Shown: piece after piece, positions 54,127 through 64,000 of the stretch | Layout: each line of letters opens with the position of its first letter | Numbering within the stretch: position 1 is the first letter of the stretch | Assembly (NCBI GenBank): GCA_963745385.1 | Contig: CAVUXI010000023.1 | Span: 5,622 to 69,621 of the forward strand | Direction: 5' to 3' | DNA from: an uncultured beta proteobacterium | Lineage (GTDB): Bacteria; Pseudomonadota; Gammaproteobacteria; Burkholderiales; Casimicrobiaceae | DNA: 64,000 nucleotides | Translations under genes and position numbers: made by a program | The notes under the pieces: model-generated | Databases searched by the model: none | What the model saw: the letters and a program-made list of their open reading frames with translations, nothing else | Told to the model about the DNA's origin: nothing

Positions 54127-57100
54127 TCACTTCCCGGGCACACGGCAACAAGTTGCGGTCGCCGTCAAATGCGCATCCGCGCCCGAGTTGCTCGCCGAGC
54201 ACAGCCACGCCTGTCCCAGCGCCTTATCAGCGACGAGCTTCATGCTCGGCGAATCGCTGTCGCAACTGCCCGCCGTCAGCTGTATAGCCCGCGGCACATG
54301 CGGGCGACGTCGCGTTGCCCGACGAGCCCGCACCGATGGTCACCGCGCCCGACGTCTGCGTCGTGCATTGCAGCGCCGTCGCATCCGATGAAACGAAATA
54401 GCCCACGACGTCGAAGATGAGGTGCGCCGACAAGGCCGCCGGCATCGCGAAGTAGATATTGTTGCCGGCGACCTGCGGGACCACGTACATCGTCGACAGA
54501 CCCTGGCCATGGGTGTAGTTCAGCGCGACCGTCGACAACGTCGTGCTCAAATCGCTGCTGTCGCTCACGCCGAGGAACGCGTCGAAATTCGGATTGAGTA
54601 TCGTGATGACGATCGCAACACCGAAGATGGAACTGCCCGGCGGATTGGTGAGGCCGCAGTCCGAAGCTGGATTCCCGCCATAGATCCCCCAGTTCCCGCC
54701 AGCCGCGACGTATCCCGGAATCTGTTTCAGCGCTCCGCCGGTGATCGGACCCTGCACGCCGCTGGCTAGCGTCGCATGGCGCGTGTCCATGATCCGGCAC
54801 GGCTCCACCGGCTTGTAGACTAAGTTGCTGGGGCCGGCCAGCCCCGCGGGCGCCGCTATGAAGAATTCCTCCGAGGCCATGGCCGCGACGTACTGGACAT
54901 CTCCGGCAAAGCTCGCGCTCAAGCTCAGCGGTCCTCTCGACGGAACGATGAGAGTGCAACTCGCGTTGCCTTGCGCGTCGGTGATTCCGTTGCATGTCTG
55001 GCCGCCGAGCGAGAAATGGACGGTCGCGCCTGCGATCGCCGTGCTCGGATTTGCCGACGCATCGACCAGCGACGCCACGACCGTCACCGGCTGACCGGCG
55101 ATGCCGCCCGAGGGGCTCAGGTTGAGCGCAAGGAACGTGACGTGTTTCCCGGGCGCCCAGGTGACCGTCGCCGCGTTCGACGTAAAGGTGGAGTTCGCTA
55201 TCGTCGCGGTGGCGGTGACCGTATCATTTCCCGCGAAGGCTCCTGTGTAAGCGATTGTCGCCGCGCCGTTCGCGTCCGTGTTGCCAAGTCTTGTCTGGGC
55301 GTTCGCTCCGCTGACTTCAAAATAAACAGGAGTACCCGCCGGCGCAGTGACATTCTTGAAGGTCGCGGTGAAGCTCTGCGAGGCGCCCTGAAGCGGATTC
55401 GGTGAGACACTCGCCGGAGTCAGCGCCAGGCTCGGCGCCGGATTGGTCGGCACGAAGCCGCAGGGTCCGACGCTCGGTGCGAGCTTGTAGATGGTGTCGC
55501 TGGCGCCTGCATAGAGACATCCGTCAGGACCGATGACCGCGGGTGCGATCGATCCGGTGGCCAGCGTCGTCGATGTAAACGGTTGAGTGGTGACATCGAC
55601 AAGCACCAAGGCACCGCTCTGATGGACCATGAACGACTTCGCCGCACCGCTGGGCAACGCCTGTGCGATCGCGATGCCGTAGTCCGTCGTGATACCGGAC
55701 AGCGTCGTCTGGGTCGGTGGCTGCGGTTGGTCGGTACCGGAAATCCGGATGATCGGCGCGGTGGGATTGTTGAAGTAGCCCGTGACTGCGTATAACGTGC
55801 CGTCCGGCGAGAAGGCCAGCCCGCCGTTCGCCGTCGCGGGCAAGGTCGTATAGACGGACATCGTCGCAGCCCCGGCGGGATCATGGATGCGCCAAAGAGA
55901 TGCGTTGTCGGATCCGGCCCCCGAGCATTGATCGTCGAAGAACAGGTCTCCGCTCAGCGGATCCACTGAGAGGCCGCCCGGACACGTCAGATTGGCGGCG
56001 ACAACACGGAGCTGGGCACCGGTGACCGGGTCGATCTCGATCAGGTCGCCGGTGAAAAAGTTACCCGTTGTCGCGCCGTGAGTGGCATAGAGGCGGCCAT
56101 CCTTCCCGAAAGTAGGCTGGCCCAGCGTCTGGTTCAGATTCGACAGCTTGTTCCCAGCCGCCGCCCCACCACCGAGTCCGAACTCGAAGAGGTCGCCGGT
56201 ACGAAAATCGGCGACGAACACCGGCCCCGACGAGCTGAACGTCGGGTTGGTCGCGCCCGGGCACCCGCCCCAGTTTACGTTGCCGAAGAAAAAGTTTTGC
56301 GCGACGAAGCCATTCGCCCACGGCGTGATCGTATAGCCGGCCCCCGGGGTGGGCGCCGCGCCCACGCACGAGGTGTTGCCGCCGGTGAACGTTACCGTCG
56401 CCGAGCCGGGGATCGGCAAATCACCGTCGGTGACATCGACGGCGGTGTAGGTGACGATCTCGTTGACGTTGTCGGTCGCGATGAACTGGATTTGTCCGTT
56501 CGCGTCCGTAACGGCGGGCGAAGGACCGGTGACGATGGAATGGCCGCTTCCCTGCGAAAGCGTGATCAGCTTACCCGGTGTCGGTCGACTGAGCGCGTCC
56601 TGGAGCGTGACAGTGATCGTGCTGGTGCTGGTCCCGTCCGACGGAACCGTGGTCGGGGAGGCAGCGATCCCTGCGCTTGCCGCCGGTGGCGTCACGAATG
56701 TGATCTTCGGTGTTTTCGTGAGCGTGATCCCGTCAGTCGTGTCGGTGACGGTAAATGTCACGGTTTCCGCGACAGTGTCGGTGACGGTGAATGTCACCGC
56801 GCCGTCGGTATCGTCGGAAGGCCCGCTCGGAGCCGAGACGACGGCGTGGCTTCCGGCATTCGGAGTGAGACTGACGATCTTGCCTGCGACGGAGAAATGG
56901 CTGGCGTCGGTCAGGCTGACCCGCAGGACAGCCTGTGTGGTCCCGTCCGCCGCCGGGAGAAGCGTCCCACCCGCACGGGAAGTCGATGGGTCGACGGGGC
57001 CGATGGCATGGTTGGCGAAATGCGCCAGCAAGTTGTCGAAGTTGGGCGATCCGAGGCCGACGTGGGCGAAGTCCGAGCCCATGCTCGACGCCGAATGGAA

Positions 57101-58939
57101 TGCGTTGGTCCCCGCCAGTGGATAGAAGGCCGGATTCAGTTGGCCGATATTGGATCCCAGCTGCTCGTTGAGGTAGGCCACGATGCCCGCCATCAGTGGA
57201 GCGGCCATGCTCGTGCCGCCGTACAACAGGCCTGTCGGGCAGCCACCCGCATCGGCCTGGCAGATACTGAAGCCCGCCGTCGGGTCGGCCGTGACAGCGA
57301 CGTCTGGAACCGATCGCATCGCCGACGTCGTCAGGCCGTTTTGATAGAGGGGGCGAGCGAAGAAGCGGCTGACCCCGAAGCCGCCCTGACCGGTGGCCGG
57401 GGTGTCACCCGAACCGTCCCACCAAGTCTCGCTGCCATACGTGAAGCCCGGACCAAACGTAGGGGTCGTGCCGCCGACCGCGGTGCTATGGGGCGAGCTG
57501 GCCGGTACTCCGACGGTGTTCGGGCTGCCGTCGAGGCAGGTCGAGCCGCTGTCGCCGCTTCCGTTGATTACGGTGATGCCCGCGGCCGCGGCCTGGGCCA
57601 GGATGGAGTCGATACTCTGGACGTCCGCCAAGGTGTGTTGATCCTCGCACTCCGTCCAGGAGTTGCTGATGACCGTGACGCCATCGTTGATCATGACGTT
57701 GAGCACTTGCTGGAAGCTCGTATTCGGCGGCGCGTCGTATACCACGTAGGTCGTATTCAACGATGGGTCGGCGATCATGACCGTGGCAATGTCGAGGAGT
57801 ACTTCCGACTCCCCCGAGCCGGGACTGCCAGCGCCACCGTTGACGTGCACTTCGCTGAGGTGGCTTGCGAAGAGCGGGTTGCCATGGACCAGACTCAACC
57901 AGCCGCTGATATCGCTCTGATGGAAGGTGTCGAACTCGAGGAGTCCGATTTTCTGCATGTTCGCGTCGCGCGCGGGCTTTTGGGCAATCCGTCTTGCGTC
58001 TGTGGTGGCTGCCAGTTTTTCTTCGAGGGTCTTGTCTCTCGCAGGACTGTTCAGGAAAAAGTTACCTGGATGATTGGACAGGTAGCCCAAGTAGAATCCG
58101 AGGCAATGTCCAATGGCACTCGGCAGAGAAAAATACTGAAACGCGAAGAAGTTGCCGAAGACCACTGAGATCGACGTGATGACGGAAATAAGATCCTGCG
58201 CCTGATCGTAGAGGTTCTGCGGCCCGGGCGGCTGTGCTTGGTGCATGTACGCCTGGAAAAGGCCGACACCCGGGATCAGTCCCAGCGCGTCATTGATGCA
58301 CGCATTCTTGACATCCTGCGGCTTCGTCGTCTTAAGGGGAGCCGCGGGGACTGCGATATTCGACAGGCCTGATACCGACATCACGCTCGCGGCGAGCTCG
58401 GGCGGCAACGCAGGATTGCTGTCGTTCGCATAGAAGCTTTTGTCGTCTATGCGATAGTCACCGATATGCACCGCGAAGGCCTGCTCTGTTTGGACACGTG
58501 AGCCGCGTACCGTGATCGTCAGCCGGTTTGCGGACCCGTCGAGCAGCTCGAATCCGTTGGCGCGCAAGTAGTCCAGGACCTGCTGGTACGCGCCGCTCGT
58601 GGGGCCAAACGTGTCAGCGATCCCGGACTGACTCAGGAAATGCCTGAAAGTCGGTGAGCCCGGGTCGTACACGTCATGGAGATAGCGGTCGAATCCCGCC
58701 TGATCCGAGCGCTGCAGCGTGACCGTGAGCGTCAGCGGCTCCTCGCCGCCCGCGAGCAATTTGGCGCTAGTGGTCGGGAGCTGTGTCGCCTTTGACAGCA
58801 TCGGCAACACGTGATCCGGCAGTTCGACTCGCGTCGATTGTCGAGTATCCGACGACGCTGCGTGCGACGGCCCGAGAAGCAGGAGCAAAGAAAAGAGCGT
58901 TGAAGCGAGCAGCCCGACGGATCGACCGATCTTTCTCAC
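54127..58939 (-). CDS. Giant secreted S53 (sedolisin/kumamolisin-type) peptidase with Ig-like (Big_1-type) repeats, a beta-propeller-like region and the shared CCRVPGK C-terminal module. A frameshift at ~54280 interrupts the last ~50 codons.
   Basis: Signal peptide. Pro-kumamolisin-type propeptide (SPTFRHFLS...FYAND...GLSN). Catalytic motifs SEVLLDI, SGDSGS and GGTSMAAPLMAG. The ORF-track frame stops at 54227. Shifting frame at ~54280 restores ...LTAGSCDSDSPSMKL...HLTATATCCRVPGK, ending at 54127. Confidence 0.8.
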
Positions 58940-59200: not shown

Positions 59201-59662
59201 TCAGAGAGACGTCACTGAATCAGTAGACATGACAGCGGCGGCTATTGCTGCGGCGTGTTGCCTGTTCTCATGGATGTGCCCGGCAGGCTTATGCGGCGCG
59301 CCGTCGGTCTGCAGCTGACGCTGGATGCGCCCGGCGTTTTGCTTGAGCGTGCCTTCCTGCATCTGCTGCAGCAGCGCGACGTTCGCGGAGAACTCCCACG
59401 GCGTCTGCGACTGCAGCAGGCTCTGTTGCAACATCGGCGGAGCGCCCGCCATCAGGCCTTGCACCTTGGCAAGCCACACCTCGCGGTCCTCGACCACGCC
59501 CGTCGGCGTCGAGGCGAGGCGCGAGGGATAGAAGCGCAGCAGCGGCGCCGCGCTGGGAACGACCTGCGCTTGACCCGTCAGGGCCGGCGGCGCCGCGCTG
59601 GCGGCACTCGCCGTCAGCGGCAGCGCGATCGTCGCAAGGATCATCCAGTTCACTTTTCTCAT
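59201..59662 (-). CDS. Secreted 153-aa protein, paralogous to the N-terminal module of the next gene upstream
   Basis: Signal peptide, RBS GAGAGGA. RFYP..L.S.P.GVVE...VWLAKVQGL.A.AP..LQQSLL.SQTP..F.ANVALLQQMQEG.LKQ is shared with 59694..60800. Confidence 0.6.
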   Translation of the reverse strand: MRKVNWMILATIALPLTASAASAAPPALTGQAQVVPSAAPLLRFYPSRLASTPTGVVEDREVWLAKVQGLMAGAPPMLQQSLLQSQTPWEFSANVALLQQMQEGTLKQNAGRIQRQLQTDGAPHKPAGHIHENRQHAAAIAAAVMSTDSVTSL

Positions 59663-59693: not shown

Positions 59694-60800
59694 CTACTTG
59701 CCGGGGACGCGGCAGCAATTCGCGGTCGCGGTCAGATTGGCCGATGCACCGGTGTTGAACGCGGAGCAGAGCCACGTCGTATTGCCGCCTGATGCCTCGT
59801 GCGACACGAGCGTCATGCTGGTCGAGGTGCTGTCACAGCTTCCCCCTGTCAACGTGTATCCGGCAGTGCAGGCCGGCGAGGTTGCGGTGCCCGCGCTCGC
59901 CGTAGCTACGGCGACTGGCGCCGAGGCCTGCGTCGTGCATTGCAGCGCGGTCGCGTCGGACTGCACGAAGTAGCCCACGACGTCGAAGATGAGCTGTGCC
60001 GACAATCCCGTCGGCATTGCGAAGTAGATGATGTTGCTGGAAAGCTGCGGCACGATGTACATGGTCGACAGCCCTTGACCATGGGTGTAGTTCAACGCGA
60101 CCGTCGACAGTGTGGTGCTCAGGCTGTTGGCGTCGGACACGCCGAGGAACGCGTCGAAGTTGGGGCTGAGTATGGTGATGACGATCGCGACGGCTTTGAT
60201 GAAGGTTCCCGGCGGGTTCTTCAGCCCGCAATCGGTTGCCGCGCCACCGTAGATGGTCCAGTTGCCGCCGGCGGTAACGAAGCCTGGCAGCAGCTTGAGC
60301 GAATTCCCGGCTATCGGTCCCTGCACGCCGCTGCCCGCCGTGGCGCTGCGCGTGTCCATGATCCGGCACGGCTCCAGCGGCGTGTAAACGAGGTTGGCGG
60401 CGTCGCCCAGTGCGCGCGCCGTCATGGTTCCGCTCTTGGCCTGGCTCTTGAGCTCCGACCCGGCCTGCTTGAGCATGCCTTCCTGCATCTGCTGCAGCAG
60501 CGCCACATTGGCGGCGAAATCCTGCGGCGTCTGGGATGCAAGCAGGCTCTGCTGCAGCACCGACGGCGCCGCAGCGACCAGACCCTGCACCTTCGCGAGC
60601 CAGACTTGCGGCTCTTCGACGACACCGGCGGGCGAGGAAGGAAGCGGCGCAGGATAGAACCGCGCCAGCGGCAATGCGCTGGGGACGGCGTGCGCGCCGC
60701 CCGCCTCCATCACCGGCAGCGGTGCGGCTGCAGCGATGCCGGCCGCGAACGCCAGCGCGATTGCGACGGCGGCTATTCCGTTGCTGTTCGACTTGTTCAT
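59694..60800 (-). CDS. Secreted protein: ~110-aa unknown N-module plus the shared CCRVPGK C-terminal module
   Basis: ATG at 60800 with GGGAGACAGGAAG upstream. The ORF maximum start at 60836 would lie 1 nt from the upstream stop. Signal peptide. C-terminal 233 aa are the shared module. Confidence 0.75.
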   Translation of the reverse strand: MNKSNSNGIAAVAIALAFAAGIAAAAPLPVMEAGGAHAVPSALPLARFYPAPLPSSPAGVVEEPQVWLAKVQGLVAAAPSVLQQSLLASQTPQDFAANVALLQQMQEGMLKQAGSELKSQAKSGTMTARALGDAANLVYTPLEPCRIMDTRSATAGSGVQGPIAGNSLKLLPGFVTAGGNWTIYGGAATDCGLKNPPGTFIKAVAIVITILSPNFDAFLGVSDANSLSTTLSTVALNYTHGQGLSTMYIVPQLSSNIIYFAMPTGLSAQLIFDVVGYFVQSDATALQCTTQASAPVAVATASAGTATSPACTAGYTLTGGSCDSTSTSMTLVSHEASGGNTTWLCSAFNTGASANLTATANCCRVPGK

Positions 60801-60837
60801 CTTCCTGTCTCCCGTAAAAGGACTACTTGGCTTCATC

Positions 60838-63306
60838 TTACTTTCCCGGAACGCGGCAGCAGTTTGCCGTCGCCGTCAAATGCGCTGACGCGCCCAAGTT
60901 GTTCGCGGTGCACGTCCATGTCGTATTGCCGCCGGAGGCTTTGTCCGACGTGAGCTTCATCGTTGTCGAATCGCTGTCGCAACTGCCGCTGTTCAGCGTG
61001 TAACCGGCGCTGCAGGCAGGCGAGACGGCGCTGCCGGTGCTGGCCGCGCCTATCGTCACCGCGCCCGAGGTGACCGTCGTGCAGGCGAGGGCGGTGGCGT
61101 CGGATACGACGAAGTAACCGACCACGTCGAAGATGAGGTGCGCGGACAAGCCAGTCGGCATCGCGAAGTAGATATTGTTGCTGGCGATCTGCGGAACGAT
61201 GTACATGGTCGACAAGCCTTGTCCGTGCGTGTAGTTCAAGGCGACCGTCGACAGCGTCGTGGTCAGGCTGTTGGCATCGCTCACGCCCAGGAAGGCATCG
61301 AAGTTCGGATTGAGGATGGTGATCACCATCGCCACGGCGTAAATGTCTGTGCCGGGCGGGGTCGTGAGACCGCAATCGGACGGCGTTCCCTGCTGGCCGT
61401 ACTGAGTCCAGTTGCCGCCAAGGCTGACGAAGCCTGGGATCTGCTTCAATGCCCCACCCACGATCGGTCCCTGGACGCCGCTGCCCAGCGTGGCGTGGCG
61501 CGTGTCCATGATCCGGCACGGCTCCAGCGGCTTGTAGACCACTGCGCGGGGGTTTGCGGGAACGCAGGATGGAAACTTGAACGAGCCGATGCGGTTATGC
61601 CAGTTGCCCGCGTTGCCGTTCGCCTGCGTATCGTAGTACTCGTTGGTGTACCAGAACGTGCACTCGTCGGCAGGATCGAGACTCATCGAGCTGTAATCGC
61701 CCCAACGATCGCAGGGATTGCCGGGGCCGCCGCAAAAGTTGTTCTGCGACCCGCCGCCGGCGATCATCTGACGTTCAGTCTGGGGCAGGGTATTCAGCGG
61801 ATCGGTCGCAAGCCTGCCCGAATAGGCGATGCTGGGAAAATTCGGCGCGCTTCCGTTCGAGGTCGTGTAGCCAAGCGCCATATTGCCCTGATTGTCGGTA
61901 GCGATGCTGCCCATGAAGCGATAAAGAAAGGTATCGGGTGCATAGATCTGCTGCTGCACGGGTGTCGTCGCGATCGTGCCGCCGCTGACGTTGATCTGAG
62001 CCCACTGCATTGCCGTCGGGCCCGCAGCGGAGCCTACGGGGTGCGTGACCCACAATGATTCGACGGGGCCGATCTTGCGGTACTGCACCTTCTGCATGAT
62101 GCGATCGTCGATCATGTCCAGCGTGTGCGTGGTGTTCGGCTGCGGCACGATGGCACCTGACTGGAAGGTGTAAGACGCCTGGCTGACGTTCACCGGCGCA
62201 CTGAGCGTGCCGCCGCCGCCGCAGTTCGCACCCGCCGCGAATTTCCTGACTTCGAATGCAAACGCTGAGCCGGATTCCGACACGAAGTAATTCGGCGTTC
62301 CGGGCAGCGGTGCATTCGTCCCTTTCGCCTGGTTGTTGCTGGGGATCAGCGTGAAGGCATTGCTTGCGGGACCCAGATAACCCAACGCATAGGTCAATGG
62401 GAGGCCGTTGTACATGTCCGAACGGCTGAACGAGCCAAACGCGACGCCGTCATAGTTGAAGCTGGGCGCGGCGAATTCGTTCACGCCGATATAAAGGCAG
62501 TCGTGCCAGAGCCCGAACTTAGGATAATCATTGAGCTCGCCGACCGGGGGCAATCCTGCGCCGCCCGGGTCCATTCGAATCGCATACAGCCAATACCCTC
62601 CCGCGACGGGGTCGCTCGTTTTGGAAGCGGCGATGCACTGGTAGAACGGACTGAGGGGAGTGAAGTTGGGCGAGCCACTGTCGGCGAAAGCAAACCAGCT
62701 CAACACAAAGCGGTCTGCCAGCCAGTCGTAGACCACGATCGGATCGCCATCGGAATGGCCGTTGCACGGCGAAGAACCCACCCCGCTCCACAGGTTGTTT
62801 TCCGTGAACGACGCGAGCAATGTGCCGGTCTTGCTGTAGATCCCTATCGCGGTATTGACCGCCTCGACGTAATGCTTCGGTCCGACGTCCCCGTTCGGAT
62901 CCGGCGGCCACCCCGAACCGCATTGACCGCCGGTGCAGGTATCGTTGAAGCTCAGTCCGGCGAAGTTCTGAATGGGGCTCGGCATCGGCAAGCGCGGACC
63001 GCCCGGGGGCTGGGGCGCCTCGATCGAGGGCGGAGGCGAGCCCTGGAACTTCGACGATGGCGGCCCGCGCAACAGCGGACGGTAAGGCCGCGGCTCGACT
63101 GTGCTTCTGGGCGCCAGCGGCAGCTTGCTCAAGTCGCCGTTGAACTCCGCCGGGAAAACCTTGGGCTGCGCGTAGGTGACGGCGTCGATCGCGGGATCCG
63201 CAGCACGACTGGGCAAGGAGCCGCACGTGAGTCCCGCAACCGCCAGCAACATGCCAATGCATAGGGTAGATGTTCTGCGTGACCGTGCCACGATTGCAAC
63301 TCGCAT
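60838..63306 (-). CDS. Secreted 822-aa protein: ~580-aa unassigned Gly/Trp/Tyr-rich N-terminal domain plus the shared CCRVPGK C-terminal module
   Basis: Signal peptide, RBS GGGAGACAGGG. N-domain features DPNGDVGPKHYVE and RWGDYSSMSLDP...FWYTNEY. C-terminal 233 aa are the shared module. Confidence 0.8.
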   Translation of the reverse strand: MRVAIVARSRRTSTLCIGMLLAVAGLTCGSLPSRAADPAIDAVTYAQPKVFPAEFNGDLSKLPLAPRSTVEPRPYRPLLRGPPSSKFQGSPPPSIEAPQPPGGPRLPMPSPIQNFAGLSFNDTCTGGQCGSGWPPDPNGDVGPKHYVEAVNTAIGIYSKTGTLLASFTENNLWSGVGSSPCNGHSDGDPIVVYDWLADRFVLSWFAFADSGSPNFTPLSPFYQCIAASKTSDPVAGGYWLYAIRMDPGGAGLPPVGELNDYPKFGLWHDCLYIGVNEFAAPSFNYDGVAFGSFSRSDMYNGLPLTYALGYLGPASNAFTLIPSNNQAKGTNAPLPGTPNYFVSESGSAFAFEVRKFAAGANCGGGGTLSAPVNVSQASYTFQSGAIVPQPNTTHTLDMIDDRIMQKVQYRKIGPVESLWVTHPVGSAAGPTAMQWAQINVSGGTIATTPVQQQIYAPDTFLYRFMGSIATDNQGNMALGYTTSNGSAPNFPSIAYSGRLATDPLNTLPQTERQMIAGGGSQNNFCGGPGNPCDRWGDYSSMSLDPADECTFWYTNEYYDTQANGNAGNWHNRIGSFKFPSCVPANPRAVVYKPLEPCRIMDTRHATLGSGVQGPIVGGALKQIPGFVSLGGNWTQYGQQGTPSDCGLTTPPGTDIYAVAMVITILNPNFDAFLGVSDANSLTTTLSTVALNYTHGQGLSTMYIVPQIASNNIYFAMPTGLSAHLIFDVVGYFVVSDATALACTTVTSGAVTIGAASTGSAVSPACSAGYTLNSGSCDSDSTTMKLTSDKASGGNTTWTCTANNLGASAHLTATANCCRVPGK

Positions 63307-63392: not shown

Positions 63393-64000
63393 TCATTTCC
63401 CGGGAACGCGGCAGCAGTTTGCTGTAGCAGTCAAATGCGCGGAGGCGCCGCCCGCATTGTTCGCGGTGCAGGTCCATGTCGTGTTGCCCCCGGACGCCTT
63501 GTCCGCCGTGAGCTTCATGCTTGCCGAATCGCTGAGGCAGCTGCCGCTGCCAAGCGCGTAGCCCGCGCTGCAGGCAGGCGAGACGGCGCTGCCGCTGCTG
63601 CTCGCGCCTATGGTTACCGCGCCCGACGTAGCTGTCGCGCACGCGAGGGCCGTGGCATCCGATACGACGAAATAGCCGACCACGTCGAAGATGATGTTTG
63701 CTGACAATCCCGACGGCATCGCGAAGTAGATGTTGTTGCCGGCGAGCTGCGGCACGATGTACATGGTCGACAGGCCTTGGCCGTGCGTGTAGTTCAAGGC
63801 CACCGTCGACAGTGTGGTGGTCAGGTTGTTGACGTCGCTCACGCCCAGGAAGGCGTCGAAGTTCGGATTCAATATCGTGACCACGATGGCGACCGCCTTG
63901 ATTGAAGTGCCGGGCGGATTGGTCAGACCGCAATCGGATGGCGCCCCCGGCTGGCCGTACTGGGTCCAGTTGCCGCCGAGGGTGACGAAGCCGGGAATCT
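63393..64000 (-). CDS. 3' part of a fourth gene carrying the shared CCRVPGK C-terminal module (5' end beyond the window)
   Basis: The reading frame is open from the window edge (...IPGFVTLGGNWTQYGQPGAPSDCGLTNPPG...) to CCRVPGK-stop at 63393. The ORF track lists only the part from an internal start codon (63884). Confidence 0.75.
   Translation of the reverse strand, partial: IPGFVTLGGNWTQYGQPGAPSDCGLTNPPGTSIKAVAIVVTILNPNFDAFLGVSDVNNLTTTLSTVALNYTHGQGLSTMYIVPQLAGNNIYFAMPSGLSANIIFDVVGYFVVSDATALACATATSGAVTIGASSSGSAVSPACSAGYALGSGSCLSDSASMKLTADKASGGNTTWTCTANNAGGASAHLTATANCCRVPGK

Follow-up and report, generated by a model that had tools for sequence, protein, structure and literature searches.

A cysteine-capped C-terminal module of secreted proteobacterial proteins is a single-copy relative of the RxxDTR repeat family and a candidate binding head

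Introduction

Described systems that resemble the module reported here in layout include sorting units placed at the C-terminus of secreted proteins. The T9SS C-terminal domain is an Ig-like domain of ~80-100 aa found in Bacteroidota and associated with the PorU/PorV machinery, and the PEP-CTERM, IPTL-CTERM and LPXTG signals consist of a short motif, a hydrophobic helix and a basic tail. Like the T9SS domain and the PEP-CTERM/IPTL-CTERM signals, the module is obligately C-terminal on unrelated secreted enzymes, multi-copy and patchy between genomes. In contrast to PEP-CTERM and IPTL-CTERM, it is a folded two-domain unit that also stands alone and, in one case, lies internally, and it lacks the hydrophobic helix and basic tail that these signals and LPXTG have in common. 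It also differs from the T9SS domain, as it has no Pfam or NCBIfam match and its hosts are Beta- and Gammaproteobacteria.

Three further comparisons concern the folds of its two parts, called part (i) and part (ii) below. The RxxDTR repeat family, made up of secreted units of ~120-135 aa, many of them in high-GC Gram-positive bacteria, shares with part (i) the pattern R-x-x-D-T-R...N-x-T...LN[FY]...D-x-x-G-[YW][FY], and some of its members carry the PC...CG cysteine pair of part (i). The module differs from the RxxDTR triplets in being single-copy, proteobacterial and closed by a six-cysteine cap, part (ii), that ends in CCRVPG[KR]; the triplets lack part (ii). The resistin-like C-terminal Cys/His-rich domain of PCSK9 is a small three-disulfide beta-sandwich that follows a subtilase, a likeness to part (ii) that may not extend to the cysteine spacing; it has no CCRVPG end. 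The C-terminal tip of the Bd2133 fibre of Bdellovibrio bacteriovorus (8OK3) weakly resembles the full-length model of one module protein and has no Cys cap.

Results

The window, the whole 64,000-nucleotide stretch of contig CAVUXI010000023.1 that was analysed, belongs to a Casimicrobiaceae-like assembly of a soil betaproteobacterium that is 72% complete, comprises 27 contigs and holds ~13 module genes. Our reference copy is a 380-aa secreted protein (ORF 59694..60836, minus strand; AlphaFold2 pLDDT 81) of what we call the short form, namely a signal peptide, a helical N-domain and the module. The helical N-domain (residues 50-135, 60432..60689, minus strand; helices 55-60, 76-89, 92-99 and 104-134; pLDDT 88-94) has a column conservation of 0.67 and is joined by a short linker to the all-beta, 232-residue C-terminal module (59697..60392, minus strand). 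An earlier note on this DNA had proposed that these last 232 residues are common to three other ORFs of the window, and we find that they are. Part (i), defined by the model, its invariant columns and a profile link to other proteins, is a jelly-roll-like beta-sandwich (residues 149-292, 59961..60392, minus strand); part (ii), defined by conservation, cysteine covariation and the predicted strands, is a six-cysteine beta-sandwich cap (residues 296-375, 59712..59951, minus strand). The protein closes with the heptapeptide CCRVPGK (59697..59717, minus strand), next to a stop codon at 59694-59696. Two dimensions given by the earlier note had to be corrected: the segment from PCR to GYF measures 135-137 aa and not ~150, and the cysteines are spaced C-x22-C-x10-C-x20/22-C-x16/17-CC and not in a pattern starting with x17-19.

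A second copy (60838..61539, minus strand) ends an 822-aa protein (ORF 60838..63306) whose N-terminal 580 aa (61546-63306, minus strand) have no Pfam or NCBIfam match; related MAGs (L017, L029, L031) hold a ~820-aa paralogue. A third (63393..64000, minus strand) ends an S8 subtilase whose gene leaves the window, with a 613-codon open frame in the contig. The fourth (54127..54829, minus strand) ends a 1570-aa S53 sedolisin with a Big_1 domain (ORF 54227..58939) and is frameshifted: one extra base at ~54280 (TATACAGCTGACG) puts the Cys cap and the CCRVPGK-stop out of frame, the last 50 codons lying in the other frame and CCRVPGK-stop ending at 54127. An assembly indel error is a plausible source of this base, because contigs of related MAGs also carry frameshifted module copies (for example P0125 and L024_10631, both ending ...ATVAVHPPT). 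Of the four invariant CCRVPGK termini claimed earlier, three are thus read directly and the S53 terminus only through the frameshift.

Sec-type signal peptides are present in every module protein of the window whose N-terminus is in view. On the 3' side of the 380-aa gene, a further ORF (59201..59662, minus strand) encodes a stand-alone helical N-domain of 153 aa with a signal peptide and no module, and the pairing recurs in a related MAG, where a gene for a 124-aa N-domain protein (L016:4863-5237) comes after a short-form gene. The other module genes of the assembly include those for a propeller + Big protein, a DUF1566-type protein, a second propeller and four further short forms; two assembly genes have part (i) with a different C-terminal region. 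Outside the window, two genes (G000:C1:185215-186690 and G000:C2:31804-32670) join a second helical N-domain type to part (i) and lack the Cys cap. One of them runs on into a beta-helix-like region, and database relatives of this capless form end in a Peptidase_S74 chaperone domain.

Constraint was measured by pairwise Nei-Gojobori comparison of the four window copies. Over the whole module dN/dS was 0.16-0.22 (dS 0.55-1.09), with 0.14-0.22 for part (i) and 0.11-0.23 for part (ii) (0.13-0.29 without the tail), at dS values of 0.5-2 over the parts. These ratios are well below 1, the value that would have spoken for an absence of constraint, and show that the module is under purifying selection. 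In the last seven codons each pair of window copies differs by no non-synonymous and 3-5 synonymous changes. The highest pN/pS among 22 close copies fell in the loops between the part (ii) cysteines, and positive selection was not detected in these cap loops (maximum pN/pS 0.66 in 12-codon windows).

Database searches with the 380-aa protein returned 184 homologues, all annotated hypothetical; counts of ends and architectures rest on the 120 of these that were listed. In nearly all 120 the module reaches the last residue, and the N-terminal domains before it vary (S8, DUF1566, PASTA, FN3, propellers). An enzyme is lacking in most of the family, whose members are mainly short forms or stand-alone modules. 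Conservation was scored in an alignment of 80 short-form homologues, by taking for each column how frequent its commonest residue is and averaging over the region. Part (i) scored 0.76; in a separate alignment, A5, its P-C-R-x-x-D-T-R, C203, N249 and D285-x-x-G are invariant, and so, together, are both members of the cysteine pair C157/C203. Part (ii), ~80 aa long, scored 0.41: little more than the cysteines, a GY and a W is conserved, and the loops that separate the cysteines vary. The last seven residues scored 0.92, making them the best-conserved segment.

All six cysteines of part (ii) are near-invariant, although some divergent members have neither C334 nor C357. Because the members that lack C334 also lack C357, these two residues probably pair with each other, and C300 and C323 would then be the partners of C374/C375 at the terminus. 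Two of the three disulfides would thus involve the terminal cysteines and tie the last strand to the beginning of part (ii). The earlier proposal of three disulfides in an extracytoplasmic domain fits the signal peptides, the near-invariant cysteines and the joint loss of C334 and C357.

A search for the terminal motif, as proposed in the earlier note, found an exact CCxxPG[KR]-stop end in 107 of the 120 listed homologues and in 96 of 122 distinct modules from named genomes, CCRVPGR and CCRVPGK being the commonest endings. CCRVPGR is still the commonest end at 30-39% overall identity; its persistence at that distance, in another order, and the absence of non-synonymous change in the window copies bear out the view that selection acts on the terminal peptide. 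K and R interchange freely at the last residue. About 10-20% of members have a tail that is extended (CCRVPGRTTN, CCRTPGRLSVQ) or replaced (CCRN, CCRPKFN, CCKLPSGRAP), and one homologue (P0202) holds two complete modules, the first of which ends internally in CCSIPG and is followed by a linker and the second module. In the structure model CCRVP lies in or adjoins the last strand, which runs through CC-R. As pLDDT is ~93 for this block and low only for the final G-K (55), we read CCRVP as the ordered, disulfide-pinned end of the predicted fold, followed by two residues that are conserved but flexible. A purely structural role does not account for the conservation of a near-invariant, flexible terminal G-[KR]. 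The terminus contains no hydrophobic stretch, transmembrane helix or basic tail, the protein ending ...TATANCCRVPGK, and the lack of a hydrophobic helix, the K/R alternation, the extensions and the one internal module copy together argue against a classical sorting signal. On account of the free alternation of K and R we also reject an Lpp-like lysine cross-link of the C-terminus. A full-text literature search for the motif returned nothing informative.

The structure prediction suggested in the earlier note gave a confident all-beta model of two domains (AlphaFold2 with 58 diverse modules; pLDDT 91.3, pTM 0.67), with the part (ii) strands at module-model residues 151-228. Pfam and NCBIfam gave no match to the module in the window proteins, the isolated module, the Lysobacteraceae homologues or the actinobacterial-type repeats; neither the whole protein nor part (i) or part (ii) taken singly gave a significant match when run as a profile against PDB sequences; and Foldseek against the PDB with full-length and module-only models gave nothing at E<1e-3. 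By all four comparisons the module falls outside the known lectin, CBM and Ig domains, so that the possibility of a common lectin or Ig-type domain, raised earlier, finds no curated or solved match. The weak Foldseek matches were jelly rolls of binding type, comprising the Bd2133 fibre tip 8OK3, Eph ligand-binding domains, the Kgp K3 adhesin, CBMs, Cry1Ac domain III, XepA and viral jelly rolls, and BFVD added a handful of weak tail-spike, fibre and jelly-roll matches (best 2.3e-4, TM <0.2). No catalytic domain occurred among the structural neighbours, except part of one glycosidase chain. The Bd2133 tip was the best PDB match of the full-length model (E=4.2e-3, probability 1.00) but below significance, with a TM of 0.52 on the target and 11% identity, and it was absent from the top matches of the module-only model. 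The PCSK9 C-terminal domain was matched by both models at E=4.5e-3 to 3e-2, below threshold; with the module-only model, 3bps_A gave E=4.5e-3 and probability 0.96, at a TM of 0.14-0.25 and an rmsd of 27 A over the aligned columns. Part (ii) scored 8.7 bits (E=2.6) against PF18463 PCSK9_C3, below that model's gathering score of 26.7 bits. With no structural match at E<1e-3 and no significant PDB profile match, the analogy to binding domains suggested by the model is a loose one.

Relatives of part (i) were far more numerous. A part (i) profile searched against 1.8 billion representatives gave 2724 matches at E<=1e-3 (counted at 50% clustering), the distant ones being 3-7-fold tandem repeats, mostly triplets, with the signature PxRLLDTR...NxT...GYLT...LNF..GQT.AN...DVxGYY (P0168 at 5e-27 and P0171 at 2e-24 in the profile search). 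The similarity spans the whole unit, since positions 4-146 of the hmmsearch profile (A2) align in multi-repeat proteins at E 1e-27 to 1e-14. The signature residues R10, D13, R15, N101, D137 and G140 are invariant in alignment A5, and the RxxDTR signature residues are present also in P0168, P0171, P0197 and P0236; the polar R158, D161, R163, N249 and D285 of the 380-aa protein are kept across orders and in the actinobacterial repeats. What is not shared is the tandem arrangement: each module contains the unit once, in the window proteins as in every relative that bears part (ii). The earlier note had likened part (i) to a repeat of actinobacterial cell-wall hydrolase-like proteins: the part (i) profile does find such tandem repeats, whereas the hydrolase association was not seen, the repeat partners scanned being RCC1, NHL, PKD and beta-helix domains. 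Scanned against Pfam and NCBIfam, the tandem repeats too are without a model in either collection. Within this very large family of uncatalogued domains, the module represents a proteobacterial variant that is single-copy and Cys-capped. Ten single-copy relatives without part (ii) were scanned with Pfam, and five carry Peptidase_S74, one of them with an additional weak UspA1-repeat match below cutoff, while one of the ten carries collagen triple-helix repeats. Peptidase_S74 is an intramolecular chaperone of trimeric fibres.

Close copies of the module were found in only four genomes of the genus (15, 19, 12 and 8 matches) and in none of the other members searched. Among named records, close copies belong to 'Casimicrobiaceae bacterium' and 'beta proteobacterium' MAGs. 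Distant copies, 1-7 in number, occur in other genera of the family, among them stand-alone proteins of 267-283 aa that consist of a signal peptide and the module and end in TCCRVPGR. Among 400 genomes sampled evenly across the class, no further one contained a complete module, and three had partial matches, to part (i) or to the module's middle. Complete modules at 30-39% identity occur in Lysobacteraceae/Lysobacterales (Lysobacter, Arenimonas, Luteimonas, Cognatilysobacter terrigena and Alkalisalibacterium limincola) and in Polaromonas. There, 3-6 short-form paralogues stand in tandem arrays and have a helical N-domain of a third type. The Lysobacteraceae array members fall into classes by the residues before CCRVPGR (EGTxQ, FGGxI, RASRT, TPWVH, TAKLM and SGYGY), and the order of these tail classes recurs across genera (L044, L046, L047, L048, L058, L062), which suggests a fixed set of distinct subunits.

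The Lysobacteraceae arrays sit among housekeeping genes, and the gene neighbourhoods inspected contained neither a conserved machinery or partner gene adjoining the arrays nor a sortase-like enzyme. An Sfp-type PPTase gene downstream in the window was considered as module machinery and rejected, as it has no counterpart near other copies. At all three loci inspected in another genus of the family (L020:7292-8692, L021:6688-8193, L019:8743-10284) the single stand-alone module gene directly adjoins a gene for a ~460-510-aa protein with YVTN-type propeller repeats, then dockerin-like 'D.N.DG....D..L.LRYLLG' repeats and a conserved ...HG.SCL end; this protein may be a partner of the stand-alone module. 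Two neighbouring genes of the related MAG (L016:11131-11760 and L018:13534-14616, both minus strand) have IPTL-CTERM-like tails (VPTLDW/VPALSWW, then a hydrophobic helix and basic residues), and one of them has Vgb_lyase-type repeats in common with a module-bearing paralogue. A paralogous passenger with Vgb_lyase repeats can therefore end in this module or in an IPTL-CTERM-like tail.

Discussion

The reading that we tentatively favour, with doubt still slightly outweighing confidence, is that the module forms a trimer, is stapled by disulfides and acts as a binding head, tethering or targeting the enzymes or stalks fused to it. Part (i) would bring three chains, identical or paralogous, together in a three-lobed head, an arrangement that the tandem triplets of the RxxDTR family would achieve in a single chain. 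The exposed face of this head would consist of the variable part (ii) loops. By binding a polymer or a component of the cell surface, the head would tether or target whatever lies upstream, be it an S8 or S53 protease, a propeller, a DUF1566 domain or the helical stalk alone. We infer the trimer from relatives, namely the HMM relationship of part (i) to repeats that occur mostly in threes and the S74 and collagen elements on single-copy relatives. Binding and tethering would be in keeping with the terminal position of the module in nearly all 120 listed homologues, after unrelated N-terminal domains, and with its weak structural neighbours, binding-type jelly rolls that include phage tail spikes. 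A conserved part (i) beneath a variable part (ii) fits an assembly core with a diversified face, and the exchange of module and IPTL-CTERM-like tail on a paralogous passenger fits a role in localisation. The module probably functions by itself, because proteins made up of only a signal peptide and the module exist. Several observations count against a binding head: the structural analogy is loose, the cap loops reach a pN/pS of only ~0.65, with no positive selection, no ligand, partner gene or conserved machinery is seen beside the arrays, and the near-invariance of the flexible terminal G-[KR] calls for more than a structural role.

A docking role is possible but rather unlikely. Here paralogous chains would form mixed trimers through part (i), short-form chains would carry enzyme-bearing chains, and the helical N-domain of the short forms would serve as stalk or anchor, a logic like that of the C1q A/B/C chains or of cohesin-dockerin pairs. 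Such hetero-assembly would make sense of the all-or-none, multi-copy distribution (8-19 matches in four genomes of the genus and none in the others searched), the tandem short-form arrays with a tail-class order kept across Lysobacteraceae genera, the high conservation of part (i) surfaces between paralogues and the stand-alone N-domain gene that recurs beside short-form genes. It cannot be obligatory, however, because some genomes have a single stand-alone module gene.

We regard it as unlikely that the module, above all its CCRVPG[KR]-COOH end, is a sorting or secretion tag read by a dedicated export, processing or attachment machinery. Its C-terminal position on diverse secreted enzymes, its all-or-none, multi-copy genome pattern and the passenger whose paralogue has an IPTL-CTERM-like tail in its place are what such a tag would predict, as are the strong conservation of the terminal motif, with CCRVPGR commonest even at 30-39% identity, and the retention of two last residues that are modelled as flexible. 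A tag is nevertheless a poor description of a 232-aa unit that also occurs alone behind a signal peptide, has no transmembrane helix or basic tail, has its end extended or replaced in about 10-20% of members and lies internally in P0202; the K/R alternation speaks against lysine-based cross-linking, and no conserved neighbouring machinery gene was found.

A more far-reaching version, which we hold to be quite improbable, is that the module is a subunit of an undescribed extracellular assembly system of Beta- and Gammaproteobacteria built from RxxDTR trimers. The three-chain form would then be ancestral to the actinobacterial single-chain triplet, enzymes would plug in as one of the three chains, and the flexible, invariant PG[KR] would anchor the complex at the cell surface, as a site of contact or of processing.

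There is also little reason to see the module as a passive, disulfide-rich domain that protects or chaperones extracellular enzymes with no binding role, in the manner of the C-terminal extensions of some secreted proteases. The fusions to S8 and S53 proteases and the weak but repeated likeness of part (ii) to the PCSK9 domain that follows a subtilase point in this direction; yet most members are short forms or stand-alone modules from which an enzyme is absent, and many passengers are non-catalytic propellers. Least credible of all is that part (i) is itself an enzyme with the invariant R-x-x-D-T-R, N and D as its active site, for although R158, D161, R163, N249 and D285 persist across orders into the actinobacterial repeats, many of the proteins have 3-7 tandem repeats, as is typical of binding or structural units, and the structural neighbours are free of catalytic domains bar part of one glycosidase chain.

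The module and the RxxDTR family mark thousands of secreted proteins, yet they have no Pfam or NCBIfam entry and no PDB sequence match. The proteobacterial form offers a simple entry to this family, with one copy per chain, a confident model and a sharply delimited terminal motif that can be mutated, and cultured carriers exist in Cognatilysobacter terrigena and Alkalisalibacterium limincola. If the module, which we see as a candidate binding head, were proven to be a tether or docking unit, it would supply a new model for naming and annotating these proteins and, as a surface tether or docking unit, would explain how soil bacteria retain proteases and other exo-enzymes at the cell.
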